A DNA stretch of 64,000 nt from Burkholderiales bacterium (GTDB lineage: Bacteria > Pseudomonadota > Gammaproteobacteria > Burkholderiales > SG8-39): the NCBI GenBank assembly GCA_035454685.1, contig DATIGN010000127.1, positions 56,269 to 120,268 on the forward strand. The letters are read 5' to 3'. Within the stretch, counting starts at the first letter, position 1. The number at the start of each line of letters is the position of its first letter. Below, one piece after another: positions 35,075-39,564 of the stretch. The notes beneath the pieces were generated by a model, which had not been told where the DNA came from, did no database searches, and worked only from the letters and a program-made list of their open reading frames with translations. The translations under genes were made by a program, and so were the position numbers.

Positions 35075-35704
35075 ATGGACGGACTTACAGAGCGGCAAGC
35101 GCAGATCCTGCGCCTCGTCCGGGAGCTGACCGAGGTCTCGGGTTTTCCGCCGACCCGCGCCGAGATCGCCGAGCGCATGGGCTTTCGCTCTGTGAACGCC
35201 GCCGAGCAACACCTGCGCGCGCTGGAGAAAAAGGGCGCGATCGAAATCTCTTCCGGAGCCTCGCGCGGCATCCGGGTGCGCGATGGCCGCCCTGCCGCCC
35301 GCCTCGGGCGGCTGCTCGAGCTGCCATTGGTCGGCCGCGTCGCCGCGGGCAGCCCGATCCTCGCCGAGGAGAACCTGCAGGGCCGCTACCAGGTCGATCC
35401 CAATCTGTTCACGCCGCGCGCCGACTACCTGTTGCGCGTGCGCGGCATGTCGATGCGCGATGCGGGAATCCTCGAGGGCGACCTGCTCGCCGTGCACAAG
35501 ACGAGCGAAGCGCGCAGCGGGCAGATCGTGGTCGCCCGGCTCGCCGACGAGGTCACCGTGAAGCGCTATCGCCGGCGCGGGCATACGGTGGAGCTCGAAG
35601 CGGAGAATCCGGATTACAAGCCCATCGAGATCGACCTGCGGCGTGAGCCGCTCACCATTGAAGGAACCGCCGTTGGCGTAATACGCAACGGCAAGGCCCT
35701 CTAA
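35075..35704 (+). CDS. lexA: LexA repressor
   Basis: [15 protein letters not shown]...[36 protein letters not shown] cleavage site (VAAGSP). Ser/Lys dyad region (GMSMRDAGI...VKR). Confidence 0.95.
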
Positions 35705-35741
35705 GACATCTTAGAATGGCGCTGGCCCCAGGCCCGCGCCG

Positions 35742-37550
35742 ATGAATCACACTACAACCGCAGACGGCAGCGCCGCCCGACTGGAGGTCTCGACCGATGC
35801 GGTCGAGGCCGAGATCCGCGATCGCGCCGACCCGCAGCAGGTTCTCGCCGACCGCGTCGCCCAGCTCTACCGCCAGATGCCGATCGCCATCGGCGCGACC
35901 TTCATCGCCGGCGCGATCGCCACCTTCGAGCTGCAAGGCCGGTGGCTGAAGGAGCTGGTGCTGATATGGTGGGCGATCGTCGTCACCTTCACTGCGGCGG
36001 CGAGCCTGCTGCTCTACGCGTATTACCGAAGCCCGGACAAGGTCGCGAGCGCGCCGCAGTGGCTGCGCTGGCTCGGGATCGCGGCGCTCGGCAACGGCGC
36101 GAGTTGGGGGCTTGCGGGCGGTGTGTTCTTCCGCTCGCTGTCGGACGAGCAGCAGGTGTTTCTTGCGTTTCTCTTCGCCGGGATGGCTTCGGTGGGCATC
36201 CCGGTGTACGCCGCGTCGTGGCCGATCTTCGCTCTCTACGCGGCCGGCATTCTGGGCCCGTTTTTCTACGTGCTCCTCACCTTCGGCAATCGCCTGTTCG
36301 TAGAGATCGCGCTGCTCGTGCCGCTCTTCTATGCGATCAACGTCGTCATTGCTTACCGGCTAACGCAGGTGTTCCACTCCGGCTACCGGTTGCGGCACGC
36401 CTACGGCAAGCTCACCCGCGAACACCGCCAGCTCAACCAGCGCCTCGAGCGGCAGCTGGTCGAGCTCGAGGAGGCGCGGCGCCAGGTCGAGGCGAGCGGC
36501 CGCAAGCTCGCGCTCTTCGCCGAGCGCGCGCCGATTGCGGTGCTCGAGCTCGAGCCCGACGGCACGGTGGTGGAGGTGAACCACGCCGCTGAAATTCTGT
36601 TCGGCTACGCAGCCGCCGAGCTCGTCGGCGGCCCCGTGAAGAAGCTCGTGCTGCCCAAGTTTCACGAGGACTTCGACCATACGTGGCAGCAGCTCGTCAC
36701 TTCGCGCGAATCGGTGGCCGGGCTCAAGATCCGCAACCCGCGCCGCGACGGCGCCGAGATCATCTGCGAATGGACCGTCACCCCTCTCGTCAACTTCCAA
36801 CGGGAGGTCATTGCGGTGATCGCCCAGGGGCGCGACATTACCGCCCAGCTCGAGGCCGAGCGCATGAAGAAGGAGTTCACCTCGACGCTTTCCCACGAGC
36901 TGCGCACGCCGCTCACCTCGATCATCGGCTCGCTGCAGCTCATCAATGGCGGCGTGATGGGCGAGGTGGACAAGGAGGTCGCCGAGCTCACCATGGTCGC
37001 CGAGCGCAACGGTCAGCGCCTGCTCGACCTCATCAACGACATCCTGGACATCGAGAAGATCGAATCGGGCAAGCTCACCCTGGCGCCTGAGCTCATCGCG
37101 CTCGACGAGCTGGTGCGCGAGTCGATGGTGCTCAACAAGGCCTTCGGCGAGCGCTTCCAGGTGCGCTTCGAGGCGCATGGCGGGAAGTCCAGTAGCCGGG
37201 TGCACGCCGACCGCAAGCGCCTGCTCCAGGTGATGACCAACCTGCTCTCGAACGCGGCCAAGTTCTCGCCCGAGGGCGGCGTGGTGGAGATCAGCACCGC
37301 GGACGTTGGGCCGAGCGTGCGCGTTTCGGTTCACGACCGCGGCAGCGGCATCCCGGAAGCGTTCCGCCCGCGCATTTTCGGTCGCTTCACCCAGGCCGAT
37401 TCGACCGCCACGCGGCAGAAGGGCGGCACCGGCCTCGGCCTTGCCATTTGCAAGCGGCTGGTCGAGCTGATGCACGGCCGCATCGGCTTTGACGACCGCT
37501 CCGGCGGCGGCACCACATTCTGGTTCGAGCTGCCGCGCCACAGCGCCTGA
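35742..37550 (+). CDS. Membrane sensor histidine kinase (about 6 TM + PAS + HisKA + HATPase_c), not hybrid
   Basis: H-box FTSTLSHELRTPLTSIIGS. N, G1 and G2 boxes (NLLSNAAKFSP, DRGSGIP, GGTGLGLAI). PAS block between the coiled coil and HisKA. Confidence 0.9.
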   Translation: MNHTTTADGSAARLEVSTDAVEAEIRDRADPQQVLADRVAQLYRQMPIAIGATFIAGAIATFELQGRWLKELVLIWWAIVVTFTAAASLLLYAYYRSPDKVASAPQWLRWLGIAALGNGASWGLAGGVFFRSLSDEQQVFLAFLFAGMASVGIPVYAASWPIFALYAAGILGPFFYVLLTFGNRLFVEIALLVPLFYAINVVIAYRLTQVFHSGYRLRHAYGKLTREHRQLNQRLERQLVELEEARRQVEASGRKLALFAERAPIAVLELEPDGTVVEVNHAAEILFGYAAAELVGGPVKKLVLPKFHEDFDHTWQQLVTSRESVAGLKIRNPRRDGAEIICEWTVTPLVNFQREVIAVIAQGRDITAQLEAERMKKEFTSTLSHELRTPLTSIIGSLQLINGGVMGEVDKEVAELTMVAERNGQRLLDLINDILDIEKIESGKLTLAPELIALDELVRESMVLNKAFGERFQVRFEAHGGKSSSRVHADRKRLLQVMTNLLSNAAKFSPEGGVVEISTADVGPSVRVSVHDRGSGIPEAFRPRIFGRFTQADSTATRQKGGTGLGLAICKRLVELMHGRIGFDDRSGGGTTFWFELPRHSA

Positions 37551-37563
37551 GATCGAAGACCCC

Positions 37564-37953: not shown

Positions 37954-38006
37954 CGCACATCGCCGCTCTTACCGCGCGATCTGACCGTCTCGCCGTGACC
38001 TGACCT

Positions 38007-39248
38007 CTATTGCGCGGCGGGCTGCTGCTCGAACTTGCGCGCGAGAAAGCCGATGACCTCGTCTGCGTTACGGAACCGGGCATCGCGGTCCTTCTCCACC
38101 AGCTTGTCCAGCAAAGGCTGGTACTGCGCGAGCTCCGGCGGCAACGACGGCGGGATGGTGTTCAAATGGTGCATGGCGATCTCCATGGCGGTCTCGCCAT
38201 CGAACATGTGCCTGCCGGTGAGCATCTGGTAGAGCAGCACGCCCGCGCTGTAGATGTCTGTGCGCAGGTCGAGCGCACGCCCTTGCACCTGCTCCGGGCT
38301 CATGTAGCGCGGCGTGCCTAGCACTTCGCCGGCCCCGGTGCGGTCCGCTGCCGCGATGTTCTTCGCGATGCCAAAGTCCACGATCGAGAGCGTGCCGTCG
38401 CGGCGGAACATCAGATTCTGGGGCTTGAGGTCGCGGTGCAGGATGCCCTTCTCGTGAATGTCGCCGAGCGCGAACATGAGCTCGCGGAAGAGTCTCAGCG
38501 CCTCCTGCGGCGGCACCGGCCGGTTGCCCAGGCGCTTGCTCAGGTCGCCGCCCTCGAAAAACTCCATCACCAGATAGACGTTGTTCTCGTACCTACCGTG
38601 CCCGAGGATGCGGGCGACGTGGCGGCTCTGGATCCGCTCGACCATGGCGAACTCTTCCATGAACCGCTCCATCGCTTTGCGGTTGACCACGGCGTCCTGG
38701 CGCAGGATTTTGACCACGAGCGGCTCGTCGTCGTCCTCGCGCGAGGCGAGGTAAACCCGGGCCGTGCCGCCTTCGCCGATCAGGTGCAGGATCCTGATGC
38801 CAGGGATGCGCACCTTGACGCGCAGGTTCTGGCCTTCCATGCGCGACGCCAGGTCGGGCGACACGGTGCGCTCCACCGGAGTCGCGGTGAGCTCCCGGAT
38901 CGAGGCAATCAGCTTTTCGCGGGTGAGCTCCTGCTTGCGCTGATAGTCGTCCGCGCCGGCCTTGATCGCGCGCACGGCGATGATCTCGTTGCCGGCGCCG
39001 GTCAGAAACAGGACCTTCGGGCAGTCGTCGCGCCGCTTGAGCGCTTTCAGCCACTCCAGGCCGTCGCCGCGGCCGAGCATGTAGTCGAGCACGATGACGT
39101 CGTAGGAGCGCAGCGGAAAAGCGGCGCTCGGCAGGTCGTGCTCAAGCGGATCGTAGCCATCGATCTGGGCGTCTGGCCACTGGCTGCGGACGTAGCGCGA
39201 TACGAGGTTGCGCAGATCTTCGTCGTCATCGATCAGCAGGATGCGCAT
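38007..39248 (-). CDS. Receiver domain fused to a Hanks-type Ser/Thr protein kinase
   Basis: REC: MRILLIDDDEDL, VIVLDYML, GADDYQRK. Kinase: GEGGTARVY, VVKIL, HRDLKPQNLMF, DFGIAK, GTPRYMSPEQ. Confidence 0.9.
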   Translation of the reverse strand: MRILLIDDDEDLRNLVSRYVRSQWPDAQIDGYDPLEHDLPSAAFPLRSYDVIVLDYMLGRGDGLEWLKALKRRDDCPKVLFLTGAGNEIIAVRAIKAGADDYQRKQELTREKLIASIRELTATPVERTVSPDLASRMEGQNLRVKVRIPGIRILHLIGEGGTARVYLASREDDDEPLVVKILRQDAVVNRKAMERFMEEFAMVERIQSRHVARILGHGRYENNVYLVMEFFEGGDLSKRLGNRPVPPQEALRLFRELMFALGDIHEKGILHRDLKPQNLMFRRDGTLSIVDFGIAKNIAAADRTGAGEVLGTPRYMSPEQVQGRALDLRTDIYSAGVLLYQMLTGRHMFDGETAMEIAMHHLNTIPPSLPPELAQYQPLLDKLVEKDRDARFRNADEVIGFLARKFEQQPAAQ

Positions 39249-39258
39249 CGGCTACGCA

Positions 39259-39564
39259 TCACTCATACGCGATCTGCACTTTGGAGAGGTAGTCGCCGTA
39301 CTCGCTGATGCTCGCGTGCAGCGCGGCGCGGTCGCCGCTGCGCGCCCCTTCCTCGATGTACTTGCCGAGCGTGGAGACGTGAACGAAGCCGTATGAGCTC
39401 CCGACTCCCTTCATGCGGTGTCCAAGCTGGCGAAGCTTCTCGAAGTCGGCAGCGGCGAGCGCCGCGCGCAGAGCGTCGAGCTCCTGGTGCCGGTTGCTCA
39501 TGAACACCGGGATAAGGTCCTGCAGGTCCTTCGCTACAGTCACCGAGTAGTGATCCACGCTCAT
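39259..39564 (-). CDS. Histidine phosphotransfer (Hpt) domain protein
   Basis: 101 aa, four-helix pattern with LRQLGHRMKGVGSSYGF (consensus HxxKG). Confidence 0.8.
   Translation of the reverse strand: MSVDHYSVTVAKDLQDLIPVFMSNRHQELDALRAALAAADFEKLRQLGHRMKGVGSSYGFVHVSTLGKYIEEGARSGDRAALHASISEYGDYLSKVQIAYE

Follow-up and report, generated by a model that had tools for sequence, protein, structure and literature searches.

A 64,000-nt stretch of DNA (hereafter, the window) from the Burkholderiales bacterium assembly GCA_035454685.1 (GTDB SG8-39; contig DATIGN010000127.1, positions 56,269-120,268 of the forward strand) encodes, amid SOS genes of a soil Burkholderiales genome, all four parts of a His-Asp-His-Asp phosphorelay: a sensor histidine kinase (HK), a receiver-only protein (REC), an Hpt phosphotransferase and a receiver fused to a Ser/Thr kinase (REC-STK). 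At a probability of roughly 0.6, we propose that these four genes constitute a split multistep phosphorelay ending in a Hanks-type kinase. In the proposed scheme, the membrane-embedded PAS-containing HK would autophosphorylate on the His of its H-box and hand the phosphoryl group to the Asp of the 129-aa receiver; His49 of Hpt would accept it from there and pass it to the receiver Asp of REC-STK, which would switch the attached PknB-like Ser/Thr kinase. We infer this order of phosphotransfer from the following genes, given together with the lexA gene that precedes them:

35075-35704, plus strand: lexA repressor (NCBIfam LexA equivalog, 234 bits at a cut-off of 111; Pfam LexA_DNA_bind and Peptidase_S24)
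35742-37550, plus strand: HK, 602 aa (PAS, HisKA and HATPase_c domain matches)
37564-37953, plus strand: REC, 129 aa (Response_reg, 86 bits)
38007-39248, minus strand: REC-STK, 413 aa (Response_reg, 58.6 bits; Pkinase, 165.5 bits)
39259-39564, minus strand: single-domain Hpt, 101 aa (Pfam Hpt, 37.4 bits at a cut-off of 24.6; GHRMKG motif)

The gene map, covering 33.4-45.9 kb of the window, was compiled from an open reading frame (ORF) listing and domain scans (Pfam, NCBIfam). HK starts 37 nt past the lexA stop codon and REC 13 nt past that of HK, and the resulting lexA-HK-REC unit converges on the Hpt/REC-STK unit, with 53 nt separating the stop codons of REC and REC-STK. Hpt and REC-STK are themselves the final genes of a same-strand string, imuA-imuB-dnaE2-TPR-Hpt-REC-STK, which begins with the lexA-associated SOS mutagenesis cassette imuA-imuB-dnaE2. 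An original prediction for this DNA had described a non-hybrid PAS kinase 37 nt after lexA, a 129-aa receiver-only protein 13 nt after the kinase, and a convergent unit comprising an Hpt protein with a GHRMKG motif and a receiver fused to a Ser/Thr kinase, and each of these descriptions proved exact. Strong domain matches and retention in many related contigs identify the relay genes as real genes rather than chance ORFs.

In HK, residues ~46-208 are predicted to form five to six membrane helices joined by short loops, a region that matched no Pfam family, followed by a PAS domain (256-369), a HisKA domain (375-443; H-box SHELRTP, 67.4 bits) and a HATPase_c domain (490-599; 106.5 bits). The protein ends straight after the ATPase domain, without a receiver, and is thus not a hybrid kinase; membrane-helix prediction indicated all other relay proteins to be soluble. 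When aligned with CheY, both receivers and their relatives had invariant equivalents of D13, D57 and K109, with Thr or Ser at the T87 position. The receiver-only protein retains the acidic pocket, the phospho-acceptor Asp, the Thr and the Lys, and carries Thr at the CheY Y106 position, i.e. it has lost the aromatic switch. Together with its orthologues it shows T, V and V at this position, and the REC-STK receiver keeps a Thr/Tyr pair. Among the receivers studied in PMC9981736, the aromatic position was variable in intermediate and conserved in terminal ones. Because the pattern found here matches, an intermediate role for the receiver-only protein and a terminal one for the REC-STK receiver would fit; we regard this as supportive, not decisive. 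The 64-kb window yielded no further HK, REC or Hpt in a tblastn test of low sensitivity.

The phospho-acceptor of Hpt is His49 within GHRMKG. Across nine sequences from the three clades described below, G48, H49, K52 and G53 are invariant, and the family aligns gap-free at 100-101 aa, with G55, Y58, G59 and F60 likewise invariant. The best PDB sequence match of Hpt was 7c1i_A (116-aa chain; E 2e-6), which we take, unconfirmed, to be HptB; the depositor name reads only 'Histidine kinase'.

In REC-STK, a flexible linker (residues 124-143) connects the receiver (1-121) to the PknB-like Hanks Ser/Thr kinase domain (about 148-410). In an alignment of 29 family members, which are only 35-45% identical with the exception of one 75% relative, K180, E199, H271-R272-D273 (HRD), N278, D291-F292-G293 (DFG) and P318-E319 do not vary, and no Hanks catalytic motif is missing (Gly-rich loop, VAIK Lys, alpha-C Glu, HRD, DFG, APE-like). 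An AlphaFold2 model (mean pLDDT 87) comprises a canonical receiver and a PknA/PknB-like kinase joined by a disordered linker, in line with Foldseek, whose best matches were PknA/PknB kinase domains (target-normalised TM-score 0.88). By its motifs and predicted fold, REC-STK is thus a Hanks-type (eukaryote-like) Ser/Thr protein kinase. At a pTM of 0.64, the model does not fix the relative orientation of the two domains, though each is confident, and given the disordered linker we claim no receiver-kinase interface. Neither by sequence nor by fold was a solved protein combining a receiver with a Hanks kinase among the PDB matches listed, and the literature searched held no characterised receiver-Hanks-kinase regulator. 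Several distant receiver-kinase members have lost the phospho-acceptor Asp (Y, G, N, A or S in alignment columns 69-76), and their receivers are probably no longer relay-dependent.

Related loci, numbered L001 onwards, extend the Hpt/REC-STK pairing to three Burkholderiales clades. REC-STK orthologues at 83-100% identity are very common in soil-metagenome Burkholderiales. Clade A comprises nine contigs from different samples, picked via REC-STK at 85-87% or via the TPR protein at 76% identity, with protein identities of 76-87%. Six contigs are long enough to cover the locus, and each keeps the whole arrangement from imuA to pncB; nothing in the three shorter ones interrupts it. The flanking pncB, MFS transporter, dinB and SOS-response-associated peptidase (SRAP) genes are constant in those clade A contigs that reach them (L001, L004-L006, L093-L095), and the SRAP/dinB arrangement of the window recurs in L001, L004 and L093. 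To judge from these sequences, clade A represents deep vertical conservation within one lineage.

Beyond clade A, the next REC-STK relatives are at most 45% identical (50%-identity cluster representatives), and many share the 400-450-aa receiver-kinase architecture. Clade B (L007 and L087-L090; 99-55% identical among themselves and about 40% to the window) carries, in order, a CHASE2 hybrid kinase (HisKA-HATPase-REC), a 100-aa Hpt, usually a receiver-cyclase fusion, and REC-STK; L007, a 5.8-kb contig with this order, ends just past REC-STK. In clade C (L091 and L092), the order is a PAS protein, a receiver-cyclase fusion (L091 only), REC-STK and Hpt, adjoining a Pil-Chp chemosensory cluster. 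In the complete loci examined from the three clades, six of them from clades B and C, Hpt is always the neighbour of REC-STK, at between-clade identities of about 40% to the window proteins (36-45% for Hpt by local alignment). Orthologues of the receiver-only protein are present in two of the six non-A loci, L090 and L091 (39-40% identity, E 1e-28 to 1e-30), where they converge on the Hpt/REC-STK pair; the remaining receivers in these loci score about 1e-10 against it. The TPR protein was found in clade A only (76-94% identity), with no tblastn match (E<=1e-4) in L087-L092. The search for its homologues was saturated by clade A and could not assign it to either the mutasome cassette or the relay.

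Because the kinase and the first receiver are one protein in clade B, encoded next to Hpt, the separately encoded HK and REC of the window are supported as partners. By comparative sequence, Hpt and REC-STK form a conserved pair, with the receiver-only protein as a recurrent third member and the sensor as an exchangeable one. The specific PAS kinase counts as exchangeable because Hpt/REC-STK travels with other sensors outside clade A. The predicted co-inheritance of the HK/REC and Hpt/REC-STK pairs is therefore only partial: it held in six of six spanning clade A contigs, and outside this clade the sensors differ, which goes part of the way towards the refuting condition of the original prediction, separate inheritance of the HK/REC pair. 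In evolutionary terms, Hpt and REC-STK, often with the receiver-only gene, would be an old Burkholderiales cassette that became coupled to varied sensors. The four-module relay of the original prediction thus finds support in the intact residues, the Hpt/REC-STK adjacency in three clades, the clade B fusion and the receiver-only orthologues.

As a background for gene neighbourhoods, and not as added evidence for the Hpt/REC-STK pairing, metagenomes were scanned with a degenerate nucleotide pattern that represents the Hpt motif outside clade A. On the related loci above the pattern was specific, giving seven matches, all of them known non-A Hpt genes. The scan returned 120 loci, 113 with a true family member (mostly 35-50% identical). 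Clade B/C modules accounted for 3 of these 113, and an HK core was present in 54. None of the 113 had a match to LexA, DnaE2, ImuA, ImuB, DinB or Mfd; 83 of them have >=1.3 kb on one side of Hpt. Judged by these neighbourhoods, the small Hpt family (100 aa) is broad and generic, its pairing with REC-STK is specific to the Burkholderiales clades above, and Hpt loci do not in general have DNA-repair genes beside them. In addition, a genome-collection scan with the generic motif HRDLKPxN identified 6 true REC-STK loci (L007-L012) among the 80 listed, with no close orthologue among them. The gammaproteobacterial ones (L008-L012) are uninformative on the relay, as they are orphans in housekeeping contexts with no Hpt, kinase or SOS genes nearby. 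The Woeseiaceae-like orphans (L008 10001-11953, L012 9995-12583) lie between purF/cvpA/SPOR-domain genes and a gene for a calcineurin-like metallophosphoesterase, which could be the matching protein phosphatase.

The remaining genes and control elements of the locus place the relay within an SOS cluster:

33457-34038, plus strand: SRAP/YedK-type peptidase (Pfam SRAP, 138 bits)
34015-35055, minus strand: dinB (DNA polymerase IV), divergent from lexA (NCBIfam DNA polymerase IV, 425.7 bits at a cut-off of 256; ATG read from the sequence)
35039-35074, unstranded: putative shared dinB/lexA control region (half SOS box and promoter-like TGGACA-17-TATATT)
35712-35722, plus strand: TAGAATGGCGC in the lexA-HK spacer (-10-like TAGAAT), invariant in the window, L001 and L004
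39571-39576, minus strand: perfect TATAAT within AACTATAAT in the TPR-Hpt spacer, 6 nt before the Hpt ATG
39599-40096, minus strand: soluble TPR protein, 165 aa, between dnaE2 and Hpt (weak Pfam TPR matches)
40109-43090, minus strand: dnaE2, error-prone DNA polymerase (NCBIfam NF004225, 1422 bits at a cut-off of 939)
43074-44261, minus strand: imuB-like gene, assigned by its position and a sub-threshold IMS_C match
44176-44883, minus strand: imuA (NCBIfam ImuA equivalog, 203 bits at a cut-off of 150)
44888-44903, unstranded: canonical SOS (LexA) box CTGTACATAAATACAG, a pattern match before imuA
44971-45858, minus strand: class III nucleotidyl cyclase fused to an FHA domain (Pfam Guanylate_cyc, 70 bits; FHA, 34.8 bits)

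LexA is intact, with an Ala-Gly cleavage site and an S24 peptidase domain, and imuA, the imuB-like gene and dnaE2 stand in cassette order. From dnaE2 on, the gaps in the string (dnaE2-TPR, TPR-Hpt, Hpt-REC-STK) measure 12, 34 and 10 nt. The box CTGTACATAAATACAG, the only canonical LexA box near the locus, lies 5.3 kb before Hpt and inside a 20-mer, TACTGTATTTATGTACAGTA (gene strand, TACTGT...ACAGTA), that ends 2 nt before the imuA ATG. A perfect SOS box occupies the equivalent site in L001, L004, L005, L006 and L093, and it is the sole perfect box in the four ~21-kb loci L001 and L004-L006. On the other flank, the start codons of dinB and lexA are separated by a 19-nt spacer, ACTGTATATATTGCCACTA, which is identical in L004 and L093 and differs in L001 by one substitution and a 2-nt insertion. 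Here, a half SOS box starting with CTGTATAT (35057-35072) has CCAC, not ACAG, as its second half. The promoter-like TGGACA-17-TATATT overlaps this spacer, its -10 ending 7 nt before the lexA ATG, and on the opposite strand its AT-rich core immediately precedes the dinB ATG. A single control region with overlapping elements, the half SOS box among them, may hence serve both dinB and lexA and yield leaderless mRNAs. With one mismatch allowed, the SOS-box search was uninformative (10 matches versus 12.8 expected). Two more perfect CTGT-N8-ACAG matches, at 9259-9274 (in a 414-aa ORF, DadA-like, read without a domain scan) and at 34137-34152 (in dinB), are probably due to chance, as both lie inside ORFs and one has a GC-rich centre.

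Turning to the spacers that precede the relay genes, TAGAATGGCGC is unchanged although the lexA-HK spacer measures 37, 75 or 47 nt among the window, L001 and L004, and may be the -10 element of a separate HK-REC promoter. Similarly, AACTATAAT is invariant in the same three sequences while its flanks vary, and ends 6-7 nt before the Hpt ATG; its TATAAT may act as an internal promoter for a leaderless Hpt/REC-STK transcript. SOS-independent promoters for HK and Hpt are likely as well, going by these conserved elements. A sequence scan found no terminator-like site between dnaE2 and the end of REC-STK, nor any separating the genes of the locus, and Hpt and REC-STK may also be co-transcribed with imuA-imuB-dnaE2. 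The most economical reading would combine basal expression of each pair from its own promoter with damage-induced read-through. In the lineage of the window, the cassette would thus be embedded in an SOS cluster, and because HK/REC follow lexA and Hpt/REC-STK follow the SOS-boxed imuA-imuB-dnaE2-TPR string, DNA damage would probably raise the dose of all four parts by read-through, atop basal expression from internal promoters. For SOS co-regulation, the imuA side makes a plausible case, the lexA side a doubtful one. Accordingly, of the predicted SOS wiring (LexA autoregulation of one unit, an SOS box driving the other), the perfect, conserved box before imuA stands; lexA has a half box only, and -10-like boxes precede HK and Hpt. 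Where the window has a 53-nt gap between the convergent receiver-only and REC-STK genes, L001 has a 4-nt overlap (11254-11257), so the two transcripts there necessarily overlap as well, with possible mutual interference.

Several of these observations weigh against a single, SOS-linked relay. Its two halves belong to different transcription units that face each other; HK and Hpt each have a conserved -10-like box right before them, making LexA-independent expression of each pair possible; and the lexA box is only half a box, with CAC or CAT replacing CAG in the window and its relatives. The clade A evidence is all vertical inheritance within a single uncultured lineage, outside of which the sensor kinase differs and is not co-inherited. 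Moreover, L090 holds both a hybrid kinase and a receiver-only gene, and the receiver-only protein may for this reason be a branch or phosphate sink rather than an obligatory intermediate.

The separate units with their own conserved boxes would also be expected if two unrelated circuits happened to abut, HK and the receiver-only protein being self-contained (with a CheY-like output or a sink) and Hpt/REC-STK being fed by a hybrid kinase elsewhere. The pairing of Hpt/REC-STK with other sensors in sister clades, and the kinase genes that usually precede Hpt of this family (54 of the 113 metagenome loci), point the same way. However, no hybrid kinase is present in the 64-kb window or in the 20-kb loci of clade A, two other clades have a receiver-only orthologue alongside Hpt/REC-STK, again convergent, and the clade B kinase-receiver fusion adjoins Hpt, so we consider two circuits unlikely. 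A different wiring of the same four parts, in which HK phosphorylates the REC-STK receiver directly while Hpt and the receiver-only protein form a reverse-transfer sink that sharpens or shortens the signal, appears decidedly improbable to us: the canonical direction of transfer is from receiver to Hpt to receiver, and the clade B order of hybrid kinase, Hpt and receiver-output genes is the classical layout of a forward relay. Receiver-only phosphate sinks are nonetheless an established motif in two-component signalling, and the receiver-only gene of L090, which exists besides a hybrid kinase, is not simply a detached kinase receiver.

As to the split relay itself, a closer contest concerns its position. 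That the relay is real while its place among SOS genes is a historical accident, with no role in the DNA-damage response or mutagenesis, is a serious possibility to which we give somewhat less than even odds. The SOS association is limited to one lineage, clade C adjoins the Pil-Chp cluster instead, and both the internal promoter-like boxes and the degenerate lexA box would suit an accident. Against this, the relay genes fit exactly into the interval from lexA to the 3' end of the SOS-boxed operon, leaving gaps of 10-37 nt, and hold this place throughout clade A. Furthermore, the clade B module lies directly upstream of a same-strand mfd gene (L087 11369-14791, L088 11427-14852, L089 11411-14827, L090 11989-15345), at a distance of 51-91 nt in three of the four loci. 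mfd encodes the transcription-repair coupling factor, and this is a second, independent adjacency to a repair/mutagenesis gene, of a kind that none of the 113 generic Hpt loci displayed. Two of the three REC-STK clades thus adjoin repair or mutagenesis genes (the SOS cluster in A, mfd in B), a suggestive pattern, but one of just two evolutionary events.

Taken further, the Hpt/REC-STK cassette could be a dedicated regulator of DNA-damage tolerance in Burkholderiales: damage would induce the relay along with ImuA-ImuB-DnaE2, and a membrane- or PAS-sensed signal would gate error-prone synthesis, with the mutasome, RecA, LexA or an FHA partner as the target phosphorylated on Ser/Thr. We hold this extension to be quite unlikely as it stands. 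If true, the position of the clade B module before mfd would follow the same logic for transcription-coupled repair, and no earlier His-Asp relay would have been shown to control SOS mutagenesis via a Hanks kinase. Candidate REC-STK substrates, all of them speculative, are FHA-domain proteins, the ImuA/ImuB/DnaE2 machinery, and RecA or LexA. Equally speculative, the cyclase-FHA protein encoded next to the imuA SOS box might read the REC-STK output via its FHA (phosphothreonine-binding) domain.

Class III cyclases recur near the module (window 44971-45858, L004 1-507, L088 8798-10000, L090 8943-10004, L091 8676-10001), as receiver-cyclase fusions in clades B and C and as a cyclase-FHA fusion in the window; their domains are only 24-28% identical, making orthology doubtful. 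Cyclase control might run through the receiver in clades B and C and through phosphothreonine binding by FHA in clade A. Where the window has the cyclase-FHA gene, directly upstream of imuA, clade A relatives carry type VI secretion genes (L001 1-4425, L004 692-4361, L093 1-3161), including one for an FHA (TagH-like) protein; L004 adds a Pkinase-Sel1 protein. Two gene overlaps complete the map. The SRAP peptidase gene and dinB are convergent and overlap by 24 nt at their 3' ends (34015-34038), likewise in L001, L004 and L093, and the imuA and imuB ORFs as called overlap by 86 nt (44176-44261), such that the real imuB start may lie downstream.

Finally, the layout of HK, receiver-only protein and receiver-effector had been likened to Detocs, a collinear operon of the DtcA kinase, the DtcB receiver and DtcC, a receiver with an enzymatic effector. 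The REC-STK kinase domain indeed matched the PD-T4-6 and MADS kinase models of PADLOC; no Detocs-named model was matched, although the presence of such models in that release was not verified. These matches span the generic kinase domain only, with weak ones for HK and REC. Unlike in Detocs, REC-STK is encoded on the opposite strand, which breaks collinearity, and the set includes an Hpt; the effector is a different one as well, and the sensor combines membrane helices with a PAS domain rather than TPR. Clade A contigs that reach the flanks keep core-chromosome synteny (pncB, MFS, dinB, lexA), with no variable island. We therefore reject the proposed resemblance, and a Detocs-like or otherwise kinase-based anti-phage defence system appears barely credible here.

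Multistep phosphorelays and Hanks kinases are each well known, yet a relay with a Hanks kinase as its terminal output was absent among the characterised systems we found. Any gating of bacterial error-prone polymerases beyond LexA matters for stress-induced mutagenesis and for how resistance evolves. The position of the relay, between lexA and an SOS-boxed operon in one clade and before mfd in another, suggests the hypothesis that environmental input and LexA control may jointly regulate damage-induced mutagenesis. In any case, the Hpt/REC-STK cassette offers a defined system, widespread in soil Burkholderiales, for studying a putative direct coupling of His-Asp to Ser/Thr signalling.

Among known systems, one of the closest is Bacillus KinA-Spo0F-Spo0B-Spo0A, a split four-protein phosphorelay. 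Both distribute a non-hybrid kinase, a stand-alone receiver, a stand-alone phosphotransferase and a terminal receiver-output protein over separate genes. The window differs in that its predicted output is a Hanks Ser/Thr kinase instead of a transcription factor, its phosphotransferase is of the monomeric four-helix Hpt type instead of the Spo0B type, and its genes are clustered and embedded among SOS genes. Spo0F is discussed as a single-domain intermediate receiver in PMC9981736.

In the Pseudomonas HptB pathway, hybrid kinases signal via HptB to HsbR and on to HsbA (PMC5085249, PMC6482189). As in the window, a small single-domain Hpt feeds a response regulator that acts, or is predicted to act, on the Ser/Thr phosphorylation of a partner, but the inputs there are hybrid kinases and the genes have no SOS link. 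The output of HsbR comprises a PP2C phosphatase and an anti-sigma-type (GHKL) kinase, unlike the window protein, which has a Pkinase domain only.

With the imuA-imuB-dnaE2 cassettes whose function has been described (bioRxiv 10.1101/2020.12.14.422803, PMC8682763), the window shares the gene order behind a canonical LexA box and the nearby lexA. It departs from them in that the string is extended by TPR, Hpt and receiver-kinase genes and that HK and a receiver follow lexA; no description of a cassette extended by, or linked to, relay genes was found in the literature searched. DNA damage has been tied to bacterial Hanks kinases before, i.e. to Deinococcus RqkA, activated by pyrroloquinoline quinone (PQQ) or damage signals (PMC6052341, PMC11007091), and to Bacillus YabT, which is activated by DNA binding and phosphorylates RecA (PMC3708118). 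Both are precedents for a kinase that acts on Ser/Thr of repair or cell-cycle proteins, but neither is switched by a His-Asp relay or encoded in an SOS operon, and the damage link of REC-STK is one of gene position only. On the features that its sequence reveals, the window relay is thus Spo0-like in gene organisation and HptB-like in its type of phosphotransferase, with a Hanks kinase as its predicted terminal output.

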